Assembly: GCA_963750945.1 (NCBI GenBank)
Contig: CAVVSH010000015.1
Span: forward strand, 462,701-526,700
Direction: 5' to 3'
Source of the DNA: an uncultured Actinomycetota bacterium
GTDB lineage: Bacteria > Actinomycetota > UBA4738 > HRBIN12
DNA length: 64,000 bases
Shown: positions 45,516-52,078 of the stretch, one piece after another
How the letters are laid out: every line of letters starts with the position of its first letter
Position numbering within the stretch: the first letter of the stretch is position 1
The notes under the pieces: generated by a model
What the model saw: only the letters and a program-made list of their open reading frames with translations
Database searches by the model: none
Told to the model about the DNA's origin: nothing
Program-made: the position numbers and the translations under genes

Positions 45516-47969
45516 GTGGGCGCCGCGCCCGACCCCGTCGCGAAGCTCCGGGCCGAGTACGAGGCCCTTGAGCGGGCGTACTCGCCGGGCCACCACGGCG
45601 TGTGGGCGGCGCGCCGGCGCGCGGAACTGGTCGACGCCACTCTCGATGACCTCTTCGAGCGCGCCGGCGCGCCGCCCGGAACGGCGGTCGCCGCGGTGGG
45701 GGGATACGGGCGAAGGCTGCTCCTGCCGCGCTCCGACATCGACCTCCTCATCCTTCACGACGGCTCCGACGCCGACGCCGACGCCGTCGCGGCGTTGGCC
45801 GACGCTCTGCTGTACCCGCTGTGGAACGCGGGGTTCCAGGTGGGCCACGCCGTTCGCACGCCCCTGGAGTGCGAGGAGGCGTGCGAACGGCTGGACGTCG
45901 GGGCGTCGATGCTCGACATCCGGTCTCTCGCCGGAGCCGAGGGTCTCGTGACGGATGCCGCTGCACGGGTCGAATCGTGGGCTCGGCGTGACCCGCGAGC
46001 GTTCGCGTCCGCGATCGGAGGCGACGCCGCAAGGCGGGCGGACCGCTTCGGGTCCGTCGCCCACCTGCTGGAGCCCGACCTGAAGGAAGGGTCCGGCGGG
46101 TGGCGCGACCTCCATTCGATCTGGCTGATCGAGAGCGCCGTCGGGACGGAGCTCCTCCGCGCCCGCGAGCGCGAAGCGCTCGCGGGCGCGGAGGAGTTCC
46201 TGGCCCGCGCCCGCAGCGCGCTGCACCTGGAGACGGGAAAGCCCGGGGACCGACTGATCCTGGATCACCAACCCGCGATCGCCCGTGCCATGGGATTCGA
46301 GGACGAACCGGATCTCATCTCGATCGACGGGCTGATGCGGGCCCTGTTCGAGCACGCGCGCCAGGTCGAGTTCCTCCTCCGCGCGATGATCGAGCGCATC
46401 CAGGGAGAGGGACGTCCGCTGCACTCCCCGCCCGGGTCTGCCGTCGAGATACTCGACGCGCTTGCGACGGAAGCGGAGGCGGGCCGAGAGCCATCGGCCG
46501 CGCTCCTCGACGCGATCGAGGAGATCGACATTCCCGAGGAGGTCGTCTGGGATGCGGACACGCGTAAGGCCTTCTCGCGCCTCGTCCGAACCGGCGACCA
46601 GGGCGCCGAGGCGCTCGAGATCCTCGACAGGCTCGCGCTCCTCGCCCGATTCATCCCCGAATGGACCGGCGTGCGGTGCCGTCCCCAGCGTGATCCCTAT
46701 CACCGGTTCACGGTGGACGCGCATCTGACGAGCACGCTCCGGGCGATGGCACGGAGCCTCGCGGGGGAGGGCGCCGCCGATGACCCGGTGCAGGCCGAAG
46801 CGGTGAAGCAGATCTCCGATCCCGATCCGGTCCTCCTCGGTGCGCTCCTTCACGACATCGGGAAGAACGGGGAGGGTGGCCACGTGCCCGTCGGCGCCCG
46901 TGTCGTCGGTTCCATCCTGGATCGGATGGGCGTCGAACCGAACGTCCGCGACCTGGTGCGCTTCATGGTCGCCCAGCATCTGCTCCTGCCCGACACCGCG
47001 ACACGTCGGGATCTTTCCGACGAGAACATGATCCTCGACGTGGCCGCGGCGGTCGGATCCTCCGAGCGACTGGCGGCGCTGTATCTGCTCGCCAAGGCCG
47101 ATGCGGAGGCGACCGGCCCCGCCGCCTGGACCCCTTGGCGGCGCACCCTGATCCGGGAGCTGGTGGCGAAGGTCCAGCACGTCCTCGATCGTGGCGAGAT
47201 GGGCATCGAGCTCGCGGAGGAGCTCACCGATCGGGTGGACCGGATCCGCGACCTCCTCGGCGGAGAGTCCGATCCGGACGTCGACCGGTTCCTCCGGCGC
47301 ATGCCCCGCTCGTACTTCCTGAACGTCGAGCCCGTGCGCGCGGCCAAGCACTTCGCGACGATCGCCCCGTCCACCGGCGTCAAGGAGGTCCGTGCGGTCC
47401 ATCTCGAGGGGATCCGTGCCGGCACGTACGAGCTGCTGGTCGTGGCGCGGGACCGATCCGGGCTCTTGTCGTGGATCGCGGGCTCGCTGGCGCTGGCCGG
47501 CATGTCCATCCTCACCGCGCAGGTCTTCACGACGGAGGACGGTGTTGCCGCCGACCTCTTCGAGGTCGAGGGCGTCTGGGAGCAGTCGGTGCCCGACCGG
47601 AGGTGGCGCGAGTTCCGCGGGATGCTTCGCCGCGCGGTGGACGGCTCGATCTCCCTCGAACGGCGGGTGGACGAGAAGCGCCGCTGGTACCCGGCGCCCA
47701 AGGTGCCGGTGCCGGTGACGGTCGAGGTCGACAACACGGCGTCGGACTTCGCCACCGTGATCGAGGTGGGTGCGTCCGACCGGTTGGGCCTCCTCTACGA
47801 CATCACGAGGACGTTTGCCGAACTCGGACTCGACGTCCACCTCGCGAAGGTGGCGACGTACGAGGGCCGGGTCGTGGACTCCTTCTATGTCCGGGACGCC
47901 GTGGGTCGGAAGCTCACCGACGATCCCGAGGAGATCGATCGCGCGCTACGGGTCCGGCTGGAGGCCTAG
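45516..47969 (+). CDS. glnD: [protein-PII] uridylyltransferase/uridylyl-removing enzyme
   Basis: Nucleotidyltransferase GYGRRLLLPRSDIDLLILHD, HD domain, two C-terminal ACT domains. Confidence 0.85.
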   Translation: MGAAPDPVAKLRAEYEALERAYSPGHHGVWAARRRAELVDATLDDLFERAGAPPGTAVAAVGGYGRRLLLPRSDIDLLILHDGSDADADAVAALADALLYPLWNAGFQVGHAVRTPLECEEACERLDVGASMLDIRSLAGAEGLVTDAAARVESWARRDPRAFASAIGGDAARRADRFGSVAHLLEPDLKEGSGGWRDLHSIWLIESAVGTELLRAREREALAGAEEFLARARSALHLETGKPGDRLILDHQPAIARAMGFEDEPDLISIDGLMRALFEHARQVEFLLRAMIERIQGEGRPLHSPPGSAVEILDALATEAEAGREPSAALLDAIEEIDIPEEVVWDADTRKAFSRLVRTGDQGAEALEILDRLALLARFIPEWTGVRCRPQRDPYHRFTVDAHLTSTLRAMARSLAGEGAADDPVQAEAVKQISDPDPVLLGALLHDIGKNGEGGHVPVGARVVGSILDRMGVEPNVRDLVRFMVAQHLLLPDTATRRDLSDENMILDVAAAVGSSERLAALYLLAKADAEATGPAAWTPWRRTLIRELVAKVQHVLDRGEMGIELAEELTDRVDRIRDLLGGESDPDVDRFLRRMPRSYFLNVEPVRAAKHFATIAPSTGVKEVRAVHLEGIRAGTYELLVVARDRSGLLSWIAGSLALAGMSILTAQVFTTEDGVAADLFEVEGVWEQSVPDRRWREFRGMLRRAVDGSISLERRVDEKRRWYPAPKVPVPVTVEVDNTASDFATVIEVGASDRLGLLYDITRTFAELGLDVHLAKVATYEGRVVDSFYVRDAVGRKLTDDPEEIDRALRVRLEA

Positions 47970-48722
47970 CGAAGACGAGGACGGCTCAGTCGACGCCTGG
48001 CCCCCCACCCGATCGTCCAGCGTCGCCCGCAGCCGTTTCGCCATCTTCGGACCCGCGCCGTCCTCCTCGTGCTTGAAATAGCAGAACACGTCGGCACCGG
48101 AGGCGAGTGCGGGCGCGATGCGATCGGCCCATGCACGGAGCTCCTCGTCGGAGTACTCGGTCTTCCGCAGGCGCAGGTACCCGATCGGCTCCCACGAGAG
48201 GTCGTCGGGTCCGGGGTCCTTCTCGTCGGTCTCGGCGACGCACCACGCCACCCCCTGGGACAGCAACAGGTCCTTCGCCTCGACCCACGAGGAGTGACGG
48301 AACTCCATCGCGAACCGGCCACCCGGCGGGAGGTAGCCGACGAAGGCTTCGATCAGCGCCTGGTCGTAGTGCAGCGACGGCGGGCACTGGAACAGGACGC
48401 ACCCGAGCTTGTCCCCGAGGAGCCTCGCGAGCTCGAGGAACGTCCGAACGTCTCCATCGGTGTCGGCGAGTCGCTTGAAGTGCGTGATCCGCTGGTTCGC
48501 CTTGAGGGTGAACGTGAAGCCGTCCGCCGCCTGCTCGCGCCAAGCGGTGAGCGACTTCTCGGAGGGGAAGCGACGGAAGGTGTAATTGATCTCGACCGAC
48601 GACAGCTGCTGCGAGTAGTACGTGAGCATCTCGCGGTTCTTCAGCCCCTCGGGATAGAAGACGCCGTGTTTCCAGCCGTCGAAGGAGAAGCCCGAGGTGC
48701 CCAGGTGGAGGGAGCCGGCCAT
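47946..48722 (-). CDS. DUF72-family protein
   Basis: LHLGTSGFSFDGWKHGVFYP start typical of DUF72. ATG at 48722 preferred. Confidence 0.7.
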   Translation of the reverse strand: MAGSLHLGTSGFSFDGWKHGVFYPEGLKNREMLTYYSQQLSSVEINYTFRRFPSEKSLTAWREQAADGFTFTLKANQRITHFKRLADTDGDVRTFLELARLLGDKLGCVLFQCPPSLHYDQALIEAFVGYLPPGGRFAMEFRHSSWVEAKDLLLSQGVAWCVAETDEKDPGPDDLSWEPIGYLRLRKTEYSDEELRAWADRIAPALASGADVFCYFKHEEDGAGPKMAKRLRATLDDRVGGQASTEPSSSSLGLQPDP

Positions 48723-48742
48723 CGCGTGCATCATGGCACGCG

Positions 48743-49411
48743 ATGGCTGATCCGGAAGAGTCGCTGCGTATCGACACCGTGAAGGGACCGGTGTCGGCGA
48801 AGTACGCCCGGCCGAAGTCGCCGTTCGCGACCATCGTGGTCGCGCACGGCGCCGGCGCGGGGATGGACCACCCCTTCCTCGTCGGGTTCACGACCGCATG
48901 TCTGGACGAAGGGCTCGCGACGCTCAGGTTCAACTTCCCGTACATCGAGAGCGGACGTCGCTCGCCGGACCCCGAGGCCGTCCTCCGTGATGCATGGCGT
49001 GCGGCCTTCGAGGCCGCCTGGGCCCGGCGGAAGAAGGAGCCCGTCTGGGTGAGCGGGAAGTCGCTCGGCGGCAGGATCGCCTCGATGTGTGCGGCCGACG
49101 CCGAGATCCGCCCCGCCGGCCTCGTCTTCCTCGGCTATCCCCTGCACCCGCCCGGCAAGCCGGAACGGGTCCGCGACGAGCACCTGTACCGCATCGAGGT
49201 CCCGATGCTCTTCCTCCAGGGAACCTCGGACCCCTTCGCCTCCCCGGACCTCCTGCGCCGGGTCGTGAAGAAGCTCGGCGACCGCGCAACGCTCGTTCCC
49301 TTCGAGGGCGGAGGACACTCCTTCGAGGTGCGCGGCCGCAAGCGGGACCCCCGGGAGATCGGGGCGTCACTGGCTTCCCACGCCGCGGCGTTCATACGGG
49401 AACACACCTGA
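48743..49411 (+). CDS. alpha/beta hydrolase (dienelactone hydrolase-like)
   Basis: GKSLGG nucleophile elbow, VAHGAGAG. Confidence 0.6.
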   Translation: MADPEESLRIDTVKGPVSAKYARPKSPFATIVVAHGAGAGMDHPFLVGFTTACLDEGLATLRFNFPYIESGRRSPDPEAVLRDAWRAAFEAAWARRKKEPVWVSGKSLGGRIASMCAADAEIRPAGLVFLGYPLHPPGKPERVRDEHLYRIEVPMLFLQGTSDPFASPDLLRRVVKKLGDRATLVPFEGGGHSFEVRGRKRDPREIGASLASHAAAFIREHT

Positions 49412-49698
49412 TGCCTCGCAAGAACCGCCGGAACCCCGAGTTCTTCCAGCCGCAGGAGGCGCCCCGGCCACGGTCCGCCGCGCCCGAGTGGGCGGAGATC
49501 TCCGGCTACGACGTCCGGCACGTCGGCGGCGAGAAGGAGTACCGATGTCCCGGCTGCGATCACGTCGTGCGAGCCGGCATCTGGCACCTCGTCGTGATCC
49601 CCGCGGACGCGCCCGAGGAGCGCCGCCACTGGCACACGGAATGCTGGCGGAAGGAGCTCCGGAGGATCGGGGCGTATCGCCCGCAGCCTCCCCAGTGA
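49411..49698 (+). CDS. small zinc-ribbon-like protein (95 aa), unknown function
   Basis: YRCPGCDHVV...HWHTECW. TGATG coupling to the hydrolase. Confidence 0.4.
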   Translation: MPRKNRRNPEFFQPQEAPRPRSAAPEWAEISGYDVRHVGGEKEYRCPGCDHVVRAGIWHLVVIPADAPEERRHWHTECWRKELRRIGAYRPQPPQ

Positions 49699-49877
49699 TG
49701 TCGGTGCGCGGGATTAAGGTGTCGGAGATGGAGGCACCCGCGAGCACCGAGCGCTGCCCGCCGATCGTCGAGTCGAAGAGGCTGCCATGCGACGCATGCG
49801 GTGCCCCGATGGAGCCGGAGCACGCGCATTACCGCTGCGTGGCCTGCGGTTACATCCTTCCCTGCTGCGGCTGGTAG
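49698..49877 (+). CDS. small Cys-rich protein (59 aa), unknown function
   Basis: CDACG..RCVACGYILPCCGW. Start overlaps the previous stop (GTGATG). Confidence 0.3.
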   Translation: MSVRGIKVSEMEAPASTERCPPIVESKRLPCDACGAPMEPEHAHYRCVACGYILPCCGW

Positions 49878-49919
49878 ATCATCGAGCGGACGGCGTCATA
49901 CAGCGCTAGCATCCGGGCG

Positions 49920-50429
49920 ATGGGGCAAGGAGAGCCTGCCCGAGCTCGCATGTGGGAGGCCGGAGGCCGATGGTTCGCGCACGTCCTGGACGTGCCCGCC
50001 TACATCGAGGTGACCGGAACGAGCCGAGGGAGCTGCCTCGTCGAGCTACGCAAGGCGACCGGAGACGACGTCGACCTCATCATCGAAGTCATCCCGGCCG
50101 TGGTGGGGGTCGCAGAGGCCGCCGAGATCATGGGTTGGGACAAGCGCAGGGTGATCACGTACATCGATCGCGGCTCGTTCCCGGAGCCGATCGGCACGCT
50201 CGCGTCGGGACGGATCTGGATCCGAGAAGACGTCGAGGACTACGCCCATCACTGGCGAGCGGCCCATCCACTGGGGGCGAGGCAGCTGACGAAGACGCCC
50301 GTCCGGAAGGAACCGAAGCCGCCGAAGAAGCCGAAGCCAAGGCCGAAGCCAAGGAAGAGGCCAAGCAAGAAGCCAAGCAAGAAGCCAAGCAAGAAGCCAA
50401 GCAAGAAGAAGGTGTCCGCGCCCACGTGA
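49920..50429 (+). CDS. HicB-like/HTH protein with Lys-Pro-rich repetitive basic tail
   Basis: GRWFAHVLDVPAYIEVTGTSRG (HicB-like fold), AEAAEIMGWDKRRVITYIDRG (HTH-like), then a KPPKKPKPRPKPRKRPSKKPSKKPSKKPSKKK tail. Start could be the ATG at 49950. Confidence 0.5.
   Translation: MGQGEPARARMWEAGGRWFAHVLDVPAYIEVTGTSRGSCLVELRKATGDDVDLIIEVIPAVVGVAEAAEIMGWDKRRVITYIDRGSFPEPIGTLASGRIWIREDVEDYAHHWRAAHPLGARQLTKTPVRKEPKPPKKPKPRPKPRKRPSKKPSKKPSKKPSKKKVSAPT
50360..50407. repeat. perfect 4x12-bp tandem repeat (gccaagcaagaa) encoding (KKPS)4, with degenerate copies upstream
   Basis: Read directly from the sequence. It creates long open frames on several frames: EAKQ repeats in the +1 frame and ENRP-type artefacts elsewhere. 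Confidence 0.8.
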
Positions 50430-51073
50430 CCGGCCGCATCCTGTACCTGATCCGTCACGGTCAGTCGGACTTCGAGTGGGTCGGCGACTCCTGGGCGAGT
50501 GCCCGCGGAGAGCAGTGGGATCCCCCGCTGTCCGACAAGGGGCGGGAGCAGGCGAGCCTCCTCGCGCGCCGGCTCCACGTGATGGGCCTCGACCCGTTCG
50601 CCGTGTACTCGTCCCCGCTTCGGCGCGCGAGCGAGACCGCGGAGACCTTCGCGCGAGAGGCGGGCACCACGGTCTCCTTCGATGACGAGCTCGTGGAAGC
50701 GCACATCGGCGGTTGGGAGGGCAAGCCGTTCGAGGAGATCATCGAGTCGGATCCCGAGGTGATGCAGCACATCCGTCATCAGCGGGCGATCTGGCATCGT
50801 GCGCCGGATGCCGAAGGCGGAGATCGGTTCCGGGCTCGCGTCCATGACGCCGTCGAGGGGCTTCTGCGGAAGCACCCCGACGAGAACCTTCTGGTGTTCG
50901 CCCATGGAGGCGTGATCAACGCCTACGTCGGCGAGCTCCTCGCGCTCCGGCAGGAGATGTTCTTCCTCCCGGAGAACACGAGCCTGAACAGCATCGACGT
51001 CGAGGGCGAGACTCGCAACGTGCGGTTCCTGAACGACGTCTTGCACCTGACCGACCCGCACTTCTTCGAGTAA
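50426..51073 (+). CDS. histidine phosphatase (phosphoglycerate mutase-like) family protein
   Basis: LIRHGQS catalytic motif. GTG start overlapping the upstream stop (GTGA). Confidence 0.75.
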   Translation: MTGRILYLIRHGQSDFEWVGDSWASARGEQWDPPLSDKGREQASLLARRLHVMGLDPFAVYSSPLRRASETAETFAREAGTTVSFDDELVEAHIGGWEGKPFEEIIESDPEVMQHIRHQRAIWHRAPDAEGGDRFRARVHDAVEGLLRKHPDENLLVFAHGGVINAYVGELLALRQEMFFLPENTSLNSIDVEGETRNVRFLNDVLHLTDPHFFE

Positions 51074-51138
51074 CACCGCCCTATACTCGGACGCATCCGT
51101 CACCCGAACGCACACCCGATCAACGGAGGTCGAACGCC

Positions 51139-51522
51139 GTGTCCGTGAAGTTCCTTTCCGACGAGTGGGCGGAAGCGCTGAAGGCAGAGCTCAACCAGAG
51201 CGACGCGTTCCGTCAGGCCTCCGCGGGCCAGAAGGCAACGATCCAGCAAGTCATCAGCGGAGCCGAAGGCGAGACCCACTACTGGATCACGATCCACGAC
51301 GGGACGATCGACCTGGGGACCGGTGACATCGAGGGCGAGGACGCCACCATCACCCAGAGCTACGACACCTCCGCGGCACTGGCGAAAGGCGAGCTCTCGC
51401 CGGTCACCGCCTTCATGACGGGCAAGCTGAAGGTCGCCGGCAATATGGGGATGATCCTCGGCCTCCAGGGCGCGCTCTCGCAGCTCCCCGCCGCGATGGC
51501 CAAGATCGACGTCGAGTACTAG
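51139..51522 (+). CDS. SCP2 sterol-binding domain protein
   Basis: FLSDEWAEALKAELNQSDAF..GKLKVAGNMGM. Confidence 0.65.
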   Translation: MSVKFLSDEWAEALKAELNQSDAFRQASAGQKATIQQVISGAEGETHYWITIHDGTIDLGTGDIEGEDATITQSYDTSAALAKGELSPVTAFMTGKLKVAGNMGMILGLQGALSQLPAAMAKIDVEY

Positions 51523-51950
51523 TCGGCCGCGGGCTCGCGACCGCTCACGGAGAATCGCGATTGCGCTCGCGCGAGCAGGCTGCCCCCTCCGTCTTCGATC
51601 GACGCCTCGGCGAACGCGAGCGTCCGGCCGACCCTGATCGCCTTCCCGCGGCCGAAGAGACGTCCCGGTTTCGCTGGCGCGAGGTAATGGATGTCCAGGT
51701 CGGTGGTGACGTGGAGCCGCCCCGGCTCCATCGCGGAGCGGATCGAGAGGCCGCACGCGGTGTCCGCGAGGATCGCGAGCATCCCTCCATGGACGAGGCC
51801 CTGGAGGTTGACGTGAAGGTCGAGCACGTCCATCGCGACCGTCACCTCGCCGGCCGACGCTTCCACCACGTCCATCCCGGCCCAGGTGTGGAACGGCGAG
51901 GCAGCGAGGCGCTCTCGGAGCGTCCGCAGCAGGTCCTCGCCCTCCACCAT
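51519..51950 (-). CDS. PaaI-family hotdog-fold thioesterase
   Basis: NLQGLVHGGMLAILADTA motif. Start chosen at the internal ATG 51950. Confidence 0.7.
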   Translation of the reverse strand: MVEGEDLLRTLRERLAASPFHTWAGMDVVEASAGEVTVAMDVLDLHVNLQGLVHGGMLAILADTACGLSIRSAMEPGRLHVTTDLDIHYLAPAKPGRLFGRGKAIRVGRTLAFAEASIEDGGGSLLARAQSRFSVSGREPAAD

Positions 51951-52078
51951 CCTCCACGACCTCCGGTTCCGTAGTCTCCCATGGGGTTCGCACACACGCG
52001 TTTGACGGACCCTCCCGGTGCCCGGAGAATCCGTGCGGTCGGGCTCAAGGCCCGGAGAAACCAAACAAGGGGGGAAGC

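Follow-up and report, generated by a model that had tools for sequence, protein, structure and literature searches.

An apparently two-unit locus of uncultured soil Actinomycetota and its candidate autoregulator, an orphan protein with a HicB-like fold and an excisionase-type winged helix

Does a tight row of five co-oriented genes in an uncultured actinomycetote form one translationally coupled operon, and what would be the role of the DNA-binding protein encoded in its middle? A preliminary description of the 64-kb stretch of DNA analysed here, hereafter the window, had proposed such a single string, with overlapping or abutting start and stop codons throughout and products to which motifs gave no function. 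Its inventory was sound, as the five genes with their Cys/His motifs, the perfect 4 × 12-bp repeat at 50360–50407 and the misleading ORF 49952..51073 were all found as claimed; its reading of the locus had to be revised. The features discussed below are listed in Table 1.

Table 1. Features of the g1–g5 locus and its downstream neighbours (positions in the window).
Feature	Position (nt)	Strand	Description
g1	48743–49411	+	222 aa; alpha/beta hydrolase, Abhydrolase_11 family
g2	49411–49698	+	95 aa; basic zinc-binding protein (pI 9.3), Rv1322 family
g3	49698–49877	+	59 aa (49 aa if the start is 49728); Cys-rich zinc-ribbon mini-protein
GACGGCGTCATAC	49889–49901	+	conserved cis element; candidate operator inside the g4 core promoter
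TAGCAT	49907–49912	+	-10-like hexamer (TANNNT), 7 nt before the g4 ATG
g4	49920–50429	+	169 aa; DNA-binding protein, ATG start
g4 HicB-like domain	49938–50093	+	aa 7–58; beta-beta-beta-alpha-beta
g4 winged HTH	50100–50264	+	aa 61–115; MerR/excisionase type
g4 K/P tail	50268–50426	+	aa 117–169; disordered
12-bp-period tandem array	50333–50408	+	TRF: 6.3 copies, 92% matches, score 117
g5	50426–51073	+	215 aa; PhoE-like histidine phosphatase (branch 1), GTG start
SCP2-domain gene	51139–51522	+	127 aa; own GGAGG ribosome-binding site
4HBT gene	51519–52064	-	hotdog thioesterase, convergent; mechanical ORF start at 52064

Each called frame has a third-codon-position G+C (GC3) of 0.82–0.91, the g4 tail included (0.87, as compared with 0.88 for g1). 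The long ORF 49952–51073 has a GC3 of only 0.50 upstream of 50426, and this upstream part is therefore regarded as non-coding; it is the repeat inside g4 that holds other frames open and thereby yields a false 373-aa ORF, a lesson for annotation. One-base TGATG overlaps join g1 to g2 and g2 to g3, and the GTG start of g5 overlaps the g4 stop by four bases (GTGA); overlaps between the orthologous genes are also called in three related loci (L004, L005, and L006). Overlap thus accounts for three of the four junctions within g1–g5; at the fourth, g3 and g4 are parted by 42 bp (49878–49919), and this gap holds a conserved promoter-like element.

The statement that none of the products has an assignable function was too strong, since g1 falls in Abhydrolase_11 (1e-50), g5 in His_Phos_1 (2e-45), and g2 in PF27609 “Rv1322”. 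The g1 protein scores 172.6 bits on Pfam PF20408 (cut-off 27), and its nucleophile elbow GKSLG (GxSxG) can be read in the translation. The assignment of g2 is indirect, via its homologues: the Pfam and NCBIfam copies that we searched gave no match, the PF27609 model being absent from that Pfam copy; among the matches listed, 120 of 120 homologues (60–93% identical, nearly full length), plus the L004 orthologue, carry a precomputed PF27609 (PF27609.1) “Rv1322” match. Judging by these relatives, g2 is a predicted member of a named but uncharacterised family; it contains the motif CPGCDH...RRHWHTECW, and the N-terminal MPRKNRR as well as C46, C49, H51, H59, H73, H75, and C78 are invariant in the homologue alignment. 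We take Rv1322 to adjoin nucS in M. tuberculosis. In agreement with this adjacency, Rv1322 has been placed among the network neighbours of NucS (bioRxiv 10.1101/2025.06.19.660520).

The third gene encodes the motif CDACG..CVACG..PCCGW. In an alignment drawn from 61 homologous clusters, seven cysteines are conserved, C20, C31, and C34 being invariant and C47, C50, C56, and C57 present in at least 90% of the homologues; H42 and H44 are conserved too, and the C-terminal PCCGW is found in all homologues but one. Its start is ambiguous, either ATG 49698 or ATG 49728, the latter preceded by AAGGTG, and the first 10–19 residues are not conserved among homologues. Pfam returned sub-threshold matches only (C1_2, DZR, and the C-terminus of DUF3090), and the g2 and g3 profiles run against PDB sequences gave generic zinc-finger or zinc-ribbon noise. 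DUF3090/TIGR03847 and MSMEG_4193 (TIGR03848) are presumably neighbours in other Actinobacteria; identifying g3 with the former and g5 with the latter was considered and rejected, both scores being far under the cut-offs.

Downstream of g4, the phosphatase g5 aligns to PF00300 His_Phos_1 (1.9e-45) over model positions 1–193 of 194, and both its RHG motif (LIRHGQS) and its second catalytic histidine (FAHGG) are seen in the translation. The nearest solved structures are PhoE 1h2e (1e-20), PspA 4ij5, and GpgP 4pz9. No substrate-defined equivalog (CobC, PspA, GpgP-like, or MSMEG_4193) fits, the NCBIfam equivalog scores all falling far below cut-off (CobC 108 vs. 163, PspA 81 vs. 350, MSMEG_4193 70 vs. 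204). The next gene has a Pfam SCP2 domain (1.2e-13) and, possibly, a separate -10 box (TATACT at 51083–51088). The convergent thioesterase gene matches Pfam 4HBT (7e-16); its real start is probably ATG 51950, giving 143 aa as in L001, and its orthologues are called at 139–143 aa.

The neighbourhood was then compared across 86 related MAG-derived loci, almost all of which carry the label Actinomycetota. Gene order proved strongly conserved, where a lack of conservation would have counted against the preliminary description: g4 is accompanied by g5 in 86 loci, by the SCP2 gene in 84, by g1 and by g2 in 80 each, by the 4HBT gene in 77, and by g3, scored by tblastn, in 45; g5 follows g4 in all 86, and g1 lies upstream of g2 in 80. 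The g4 family as a whole is represented in 856 protein clusters and, within a collection holding one genome per species, in 152 stretches. The locus is a real conserved chromosomal neighbourhood of an uncultured soil Actinomycetota lineage; this lineage is widespread, with no cultured member among the recovered loci.

Evidence on the unity of the row comes from the 42-bp gap. Of 78 distinct regions upstream of g4, 72 have a TANNNT hexamer 6–9 nt ahead of the start codon, the background figure for all ATG/GTG triplets of these loci being 0.85%; in the window, no Shine-Dalgarno sequence precedes the g4 ATG. Both TANNNT boxes and leaderless starts are the norm in actinobacteria (PMC3898074). The g4 mRNA would thus be leaderless and start from its own TANNNT promoter, a conclusion drawn from promoter geometry. 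For annotation purposes, the TANNNT spacing offers a way to place the start codon of leaderless genes. One has to keep in mind that the generic sigma-70 consensus promoter and terminator scan, which is not tuned to high-GC actinobacteria, gave nothing at the g4 promoter.

Next to this box lies the conserved element. In the window, GACGGCGTCATAC exists in exactly one copy, even with one mismatch allowed; across the related loci, GACRNYGTCATAC occurs once per locus, on the + strand and just upstream of g4 only, in 62 of 86, the other 24 being without an exact match. Positions within the element are near-invariant across upstream regions and its flanks are variable. The first nine bases (49889–49897) form the palindrome GACG-N-CGTC, which is below the threshold of the inverted-repeat finder, so that this program reported nothing at the g4 promoter. 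Upstream of g4, the distant clade has TTGCGC and TACNNT, separated by an 18-nt spacer. Loci that have gained a newer -10 box (TAGCAT or TATCAT) downstream of the element still keep the element, which argues that it is more than a -10 box; and as an Rfam search of the whole 64-kb window matched no RNA family, it corresponds to no known riboswitch or leader.

Since the gap holds this element together with TANNNT at leaderless spacing, we read the locus as two adjacent units. The rival view, one operon transcribed from upstream of g1 with every cistron translationally coupled and the sequence before g4 acting as an internal or secondary signal, draws on the common orientation of g1–g5, on the three overlapping junctions, on an order kept in about 80 of the 86 loci, and on at least five loci (L053, L054, L065, L072, and L086) where g4 abuts the stop of g2 or g3 within a few bases, with no promoter between. 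Against it stand the gap itself, the missing Shine-Dalgarno sequence, the frequency of leaderless-spaced TANNNT, and nine loci in which unrelated genes, some on the opposite strand, separate g2/g3 from g4 while the g4–g5 pair is kept; these inserts include a minus-strand M50/TPR-like gene, a cyclase/AAA/TPR gene, a response regulator, and a glyoxalase. Weighing both sides, we consider a single five-gene operon unlikely, and the coupled string of the preliminary description is not retained; read-through from g1–g3 into g4 may nevertheless occur.

What, then, is g4? Profile searches said little: the Pfam scan (E ≤ 0.1) returned HTH_17 alone, at 0.014, and none of HicB, HicB_lk_antitox, or UPF0150; the NCBIfam scan returned nothing; the g4 profile matched no PDB sequence even at E ≤ 10; and an exact-sequence look-up gave no identical record. 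The HTH_17 (PF12728) score of 16.0 bits is under the gathering cut-off of 27, distant homologues reach 17–23 bits, and among the homologues listed a single one, P0120, has a precomputed match to PF12728. A first AF2 model that included the tail had a pLDDT of 66 and gave, in Foldseek, a weak HicB match (E 0.06) with spurious MutS and ribosomal matches; a core-only model built on a more diverse alignment reached 89.8. In this model, the N-terminal domain has the beta-beta-beta-alpha-beta order of the HicB/UPF0150 fold and the second domain the beta-alpha-alpha-beta-beta-alpha order of a winged HTH; past helix 102–115 there is only a short or disordered tail, with no MerR coiled-coil or effector-binding domain. 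Cys39 and Trp18 of the HicB-fold domain are invariant, and there is hardly any variation in the recognition helix and wing (GWDKRRVITYIDRG...GRIW). According to the model, g4 is an orphan two-domain DNA-binding protein that joins a HicB fold to a phage-type MerR/excisionase winged helix, a combination that, to our knowledge, has not been described before.

Each half of this architecture calls up an explanation of its own. Over about 52 residues, the winged helix reaches 66% identity to proteins of phage contigs, and it matches phrog_66, “excisionase and transcriptional regulator”, at 1e-4, as would be expected if an integrated mobile element had left g4 behind as its excisionase or recombination directionality factor. 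We find this extremely improbable: among called genes of the annotated loci there is no integrase or other phage gene within ±5 kb and no integrase within ±6 kb; the flanks are of housekeeping types (GlnD, DUF72, Bmp-ABC) in an order conserved across the 86 loci; G+C is flat across the region; and the viral relatives lack the N-terminal domain.

The HicB fold, for its part, raises the question of an antitoxin whose toxin would be g3 or g5. A small upstream ORF and overlapping genes do recall a toxin-antitoxin layout, and a distant relative adjoins a methyltransferase and a helicase, a context of mobile-element type; even so, this seems highly improbable to us, as no neighbour has a HicA/YcfA match, either here by Pfam or in the precomputed annotation of L001–L006. 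Furthermore, g3 is a zinc ribbon that is missing from about half of the loci and that inserts can separate from g4, g5 is an ordinary PhoE-like phosphatase, PADLOC and PHROGs gave no defence system or phage family beyond the g4 HTH, and the synteny is fixed across 86 loci, unlike that of mobile toxin-antitoxin cassettes.

The remaining part of g4 is its tail of 53 aa, with 17 K, 5 R, and 14 P and a pI of 12.0 (core 5.3, whole protein 10.2); pLDDT is below 70 along it in the model that includes it. Four perfect copies of GCCAAGCAAGAA at 50360–50407 encode (PSKK)x4. The tract had been thought prone to changes in length, and the comparison agrees: relatives carry independent short repeats at the same position, making it a repeat hotspot, and tail length differs between species. 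As the 12-bp unit is a multiple of three inside a coding region, slippage alters the length of the tail with no on/off switching; a phase-variation (simple-sequence contingency) locus was thus discarded, the in-frame unit excluding a shift of frame or of promoter spacing. The description of the tail as histone-H1-like fits the g4 of the window and fails as a family feature: the tail of the window is the longest, tails of 22–36 aa are found in seven close loci only, and most orthologues end 5–15 aa past the core, so that the tail is not conserved across orthologues as a functional part would be. On these sequence comparisons, it appears to be a recent, slippage-generated extension outside the core function of the family, and as such a clean, datable case of a histone-like basic extension arising by replication slippage.

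The same data bear on the idea of g4 as a nucleoid-associated or global architectural protein that would occupy many sites with a tail like that of histone H1 or HupB. In distant genomes, g4 and DUF72 are the most conserved genes of the neighbourhood, with a mean identity of 71.6% for g4 vs. 47.8% for g5 and 49.4% for 4HBT; beyond the pI of the tail, R/K-rich C-terminal tails are also seen in relatives further away, one being AT-hook-like (GRPRK); and BldC, a small MerR-like protein that acts as a global regulator, is among the fold matches. The shortness of most tails, the acidic core, the tight linkage to g5, SCP2, and 4HBT with occasional fusions, which points to a local role, and an element confined, in the window and in related loci, to the promoter of g4 itself make such a protein, in our opinion, quite unlikely.

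From gene calls, folds, synteny, cis element, promoter geometry, and tail variability, all of which have a direct basis, we arrive at a proposal to which we give even chances: a two-unit locus in which g4 would act as autoregulator of a leaderless operon through the element at its own promoter. The first unit would comprise g1, g2, and g3, joined by their stop/start codon overlaps. The second would start at g4, with a leaderless mRNA initiated at its own TANNNT promoter, and proceed through the GTGA overlap to g5, with the SCP2 lipid or acyl-carrier-type protein next and the 4HBT gene converging. The HicB-fold domain would probably serve oligomerisation or ligand sensing, and g4 is predicted to bind the near-invariant GACGNCGTCATAC, which overlaps its core promoter; the candidate target, GACGGCGTC, lies within 49870–49930. 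Binding would result in autoregulation, most likely repression, of g4 and the coupled g5. A functional link between g4 and the genes that follow is suggested by an in-frame g4–g5 fusion (L065), by a fusion of g5 to SCP2 (L005), and by a 52%-identical g4 relative that overlaps SCP2 directly and faces a 4HBT gene, the phosphatase being absent (L089).

The operator itself calls for some caution. With 4-bp half-sites 5 bp apart, the 9-bp palindrome falls short of what a classical HTH dimer would need, and the HTH sequence does not co-vary with the presence of the element, both being near-invariant; the element could belong to another regulator, or it could be an unusual extended promoter motif. 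Still, a near-invariant g4 and a near-invariant promoter element make up a candidate regulator–operator pair that is testable without culture. A bolder possibility, which we put forward as tentative and rather doubtful, is that g4 is the founder of a new chromosomal transcription-factor family: a toxin-less HicB-fold domain with invariant Cys39 and Trp18 would sense a ligand, a redox state, or a partner protein, and the protein, through its phage-derived excisionase-type HTH and an operator inside a leaderless promoter, would control a phosphatase/SCP2/thioesterase module that handles lipids or acyl-thioesters. If true, a domesticated toxin-antitoxin/phage module would have been put to use in the core metabolism of a major uncultured lineage of the soil; g4, which has no Pfam family, would show that modules of this type can become fixed chromosomal regulators.

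Several known systems can be set beside the locus. With the broad-specificity phosphatases of PhoE type, g5 shares a full-length His_Phos_1 domain, the RHG motif, and the second histidine; it differs from them by its unique coupling to g4, by its fusion to g4 or SCP2 in some genomes, and by matching no substrate-defined equivalog at cut-off. Like g2, the PF27609 “Rv1322” family is without known function, and the translational coupling of g2 to an Abhydrolase_11 hydrolase is the differing feature here. Histone-H1-like Lys/Ala/Pro tails occur on mycobacterial HupB/MDP1, Streptomyces HupS, and TopA and are, as in g4, low-complexity, repeat-built, basic, and disordered C-terminal extensions of a folded DNA-binding domain; they consist of PAKK or KAAK, whereas the g4 tail consists of (PSKK)n and KPxK, is very young (four perfect 12-bp copies), and occurs in the closest clade only. 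By analogy with the actinobacterial HU tails, it would probably add non-specific DNA affinity.

For DNA recognition, the closest comparison is with the small MerR/HTH_17 proteins (Xis, RdfS, AlpA, and Streptomyces BldC), in which the basic residues of recognition helix and wing are similarly placed; g4 departs from them by its sub-gathering HTH_17 score, its additional N-terminal HicB-fold domain, and the lack of an integrase partner, and from MerR proper by the missing coiled-coil and effector domain. As for HicB, the protein normally carries a ribbon-helix-helix or Xre-type HTH, in place of which g4 has a MerR/excisionase winged helix; g4 also differs from the HicB/UPF0150 proteins, of which SWOL_0700 (PDB 3k6q) and TTHA1013 (PDB 1wv8) are examples, in having no profile match, no HicA partner, and a synteny fixed with metabolic genes. 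The succession of a HicB-fold domain and a DNA-binding domain is nonetheless the same as in HicB, and regulation of their own promoter, seen in many HicB proteins, is likely for g4 too.

Gene calls for the five genes g1–g5 were made by reading 48700–51120 alongside the ORF table, and the resulting features are compiled below with those of their neighbors. The G+C content is about 66–71% across the window, and the locus does not stand out in composition. All called frames have a third-codon-position G+C (GC3) of 0.82–0.91, including 0.87 for the g4 tail. The long ORF that ends with g5 reaches just 0.50 in its part upstream of 50426; it thus consists of g5 plus a non-coding frame held open by a repeat, and the preliminary description was right to call it misleading. 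That description had all five genes overlapping or abutting, which is the case at g1/g2 and g2/g3 (one-base TGATG overlaps) and at g4/g5 (a GTGA overlap); g3 and g4, for their part, lie 42 bp apart. On the 5′ side, g1 and a minus-strand DUF72 gene have divergent starts only 8–20 bp apart (48722–48743), and the sequence read there shows no TANNNT box ahead of g1; the convergent 3′ ends of the DUF72 gene and a GlnD-like gene share 24 bp.

Features of the g1–g5 locus and its flanks, in window coordinates
Feature	Position	Strand	Description
GlnD-like gene	45516-47969		3′ end shared with DUF72 gene at 47946-47969
g1	48743-49411	+	222 aa
g2	49411-49698	+	95 aa
g3	49698-49877	+	59 aa
13-mer GACRNYGTCATAC	49889-49901	+	candidate operator
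TAGCAT	49907-49912		-10 box of the window's clade
g4	49920-50429	+	169 aa
Long ORF	49952-51073		g5 plus non-coding frame
12-bp-period array	50333-50408		6.3 copies, 92% matches
GCCAAGCAAGAA repeat	50360-50407		four perfect copies
g5	50426-51073	+	215 aa, GTG start
TATACT	51083-51088		candidate promoter element of SCP2 gene
SCP2 gene	51139-51522	+	GTG start
4HBT thioesterase ORF, mechanical call	51519-52064	−	181 aa, TTG start

When one genome was scanned per species, 152 stretches with g4 relatives were returned, the best 80 of which were taken as loci; these 80 all come from MAGs, and the label is Actinomycetota or Actinomycetes for nearly every one. The two exceptions, L034 and L035, have the typical actinobacterial synteny in MAGs labelled Planctomycetaceae and Alphaproteobacteria; they are probably mis-binned contigs. 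Of the 86 loci compared by tblastn, every one has g4 and g5; the SCP2 gene was detected in 84, g1 in 80 and g2 likewise in 80, the 4HBT thioesterase gene (convergent) in 77, DUF72 in 67, and g3 in 45. The order of the genes is thus conserved, and its absence, which the preliminary description named as a ground for refutation, does not apply. In the distant half of the loci, the best conserved products are those of g4 (mean 71.6% identity) and DUF72 (71.4%), and the least conserved those of g5 (47.8%) and the 4HBT gene (49.4%).

We read this conserved cluster as a pair of neighboring units with a functional link, g1-g2-g3 and a leaderless g4-g5, the latter possibly including SCP2. Unrelated genes have repeatedly entered the short interval 5′ of g4 in different lineages: in nine loci (L014, L023, L027, L030, L041, L046, L053, L062, and L085), they separate g4 from g2/g3. 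One of them encodes an M50/TPR-like membrane protein on the opposite strand; others encode a cNMP-binding protein together with a cyclase/AAA/TPR protein of 1079 aa, a response regulator, a secreted protein of about 490 aa, and a glyoxalase. Of 78 distinct g4 upstream regions, 72 have a TANNNT motif 6–9 nt (mostly 6–7) 5′ of the start codon; by comparison, 0.85% of the ATG/GTG triplets at large in these loci have one at that spacing. TANNNT so placed is the signature of leaderless actinobacterial transcripts (PMC3898074). Of the six exceptions, at least five (L053, L054, L065, L072, and L086) have g4 directly against the stop of g2 or g3, which indicates that the two units are sometimes transcriptionally fused. 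A generic sigma-70 scan detected nothing at the g4 promoter, a weak point of the reading.

Aligning the regions upstream of g4 also revealed the near-invariant 13-mer, which occurs once per locus, on the + strand just 5′ of g4, in 62 of the 86 loci, and is single-copy in the 64-kb window; the promoter fragment here (49870–49930) includes the stretches GACGGCGTC and CATAC. Bases one to nine of the 13-mer make up a palindrome, GACG-N-CGTC. In the distant clade, the promoter reads TTGCGC, an 18-nt spacer, TACNNT, 6–7 nt, and the start codon, and the 13-mer ends within the -10 box. The clade of the window has a newer -10 box slightly (a few bases) further 3′ and has nonetheless kept the 13-mer, which suggests an operator rather than a mere -10 box. 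Weak points of an operator bound by g4 are that the palindrome is short and that no co-variation of the g4 HTH with the element was seen.

The g4 protein has 856 homologues, whose core (residues 11–117) is 62–86% identical in the aligned sample and whose C-terminus varies freely. A first AlphaFold2 model with the tail was mediocre (pLDDT 66); a core-only model from a more diverse alignment reached 89.8, with strands at 7–14, 17–22, 30–33, and 53–58, a helix at 36–47, and a beta-alpha-alpha-beta-beta-alpha unit at 61–115, i.e., a HicB-like N-domain followed by a MerR/excisionase-type winged HTH. Judged by sequence, g4 falls outside every family: Pfam HTH_17 scored 16 bits, below its cut-off of 27; phrog_66 (“excisionase and transcriptional regulator”) matched at 1e-4; and the PDB gave no sequence match. 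An exhaustive profile search retrieved 1490 clusters, represented at 50% identity; among the clusters inspected, no more than about 15 cover both domains and the others match the HTH only, behind assorted N-termini, and matches in viral collections are likewise confined to the HTH part (identity up to 66%). The g4 protein is therefore a phage-type HTH module joined to a HicB-fold domain. C39, the sole cysteine of the HicB-like helix, and W18 in strand 2 are invariant even at 31–50% identity and may form a redox-sensing or ligand-contact site.

After His116, the window's g4 carries a tail of 53 residues with 17 Lys, 5 Arg, and 14 Pro (pI 12.0, against 5.3 for the core), encoded in part by the perfect 4 × 12-bp repeat, which is exactly as first described and is enclosed in a longer, degenerate array. 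Most orthologues have tails of 5–15 residues; tails of 22–36 residues occur in seven close loci only (L007–L010, L012, L013, and L017), and the window's is the longest. These close relatives have short repeats of their own at the same place, of a 9-bp GAAGAAGCC type or, in L012, a perfect 18-bp unit × 2.2, which makes the linker a recurrent slippage hotspot, in keeping with the expectation that the tract is prone to expand and contract. A phase-variation switch was considered and ruled out, since a 12-bp unit changes the length of the tail and not the reading frame. The final residues, (K)VSAPA/T, are conserved because the DNA encoding them, AAGGTGTCCGCGCCCRCGTGA, holds signals for the overlapping g5 start. 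R/K-rich C-terminal tails, one of them AT-hook-like, are also found in more distant relatives; this DNA-binding module evidently goes well with a basic appendage.

Three rearrangements link g4 with its downstream genes: it is fused in frame to the phosphatase g5 in L065 (5001 to about 6050), g5 is fused to SCP2 in a 359-aa product in L005 (6420–7499; L005/L048), both being possible assembly or frameshift artefacts, and in L089 a 52%-identical g4 relative overlaps SCP2 directly, facing a 4HBT gene, with the phosphatase absent. The SCP2 gene has a strong GGAGG site 9 nt ahead of its GTG and a TATACT upstream (51083–51138 read), so that, unlike g4, it may be transcribed from a promoter of its own, with a conventional leader. 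The 4HBT ORF is probably called too long, as orthologue calls of 139–143 aa point to the ATG at 51950 as the likelier start. In L088 (463–5936), a 36%-identical two-domain relative (P0280) overlaps and immediately precedes an 897-aa N6/N4 DNA methyltransferase, with a ResIII-type helicase (over 1000 aa) also 3′ of it. The setting resembles a mobile element or defence system, and the wider g4 family thus also resides on elements of such appearance.

As for the other products, g1 is assigned to the Abhydrolase_11 hydrolases (PF20408, 1e-50; GKSLG nucleophile motif), and g5 is a branch-1 histidine phosphatase (full-length PF00300 match, 1.9e-45; RHG and second catalytic His). The nearest solved structures to g5 are the broad-specificity phosphatase PhoE (1h2e, 1e-20), phosphoserine phosphatase PspA, and glucosyl-3-phosphoglycerate phosphatase; it misses the cut-off of every substrate-defined NCBIfam model by a wide margin. 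The g2 protein matched nothing in the Pfam and NCBIfam copies scanned; PF27609 “Rv1322” is a precomputed match of all 120 listed homologues (60–93% identical) and of the orthologue in L004. Its namesake is an uncharacterized M. tuberculosis protein that few papers mention, merely listing it. Invariant in g2 are the N-terminal MPRKNRR and C46, C49, H51, H59, H73, H75, and C78. With homologues in 61 clusters, g3 is a real, conserved mini-protein; among 26 aligned sequences, seven cysteines are conserved (three invariant, four in ≥90%), as are H42 and H44, and the C-terminal PCCGW is found in all but one. These ligands exceed the need of one zinc ribbon, a surplus suggesting that g3 holds a second metal site or else an Fe-S cluster. 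The first 10–19 residues are unconserved and a ribosome-binding site, AAGGTG, precedes the ATG at 49728, which makes the choice of start between 49698 and 49728 uncertain.

Taken as a whole, the cluster is an ordinary conserved neighborhood of enzymes with partly unknown roles, and nothing at the locus overturns expectations. Its interest lies in a near-invariant regulator paired with a candidate operator that is equally near-invariant, a combination directly testable in vitro, and in the g4 tail, a neat case of a histone-like extension born by slippage. The analysis establishes the gene calls, folds, synteny, cis element, promoter geometry, and variability of the tail. We propose that g4, translated from a leaderless mRNA, would bind the 13-mer in its own promoter and repress it, thereby autoregulating itself and the translationally coupled phosphatase; the HicB-fold domain could serve oligomerization or signal sensing, with its invariant Cys and Trp, and the tail would add non-specific DNA affinity. 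Compared with the HicB family, g4 has no profile match and a DNA-binding domain of the wrong class; compared with excisionases, it also has no profile match, and neither a HicA gene nor an integrase was found among the window neighbors and the annotated related loci. The likeness would lie instead in its action, by analogy that of a small autoregulator of the HicB or excisionase type.
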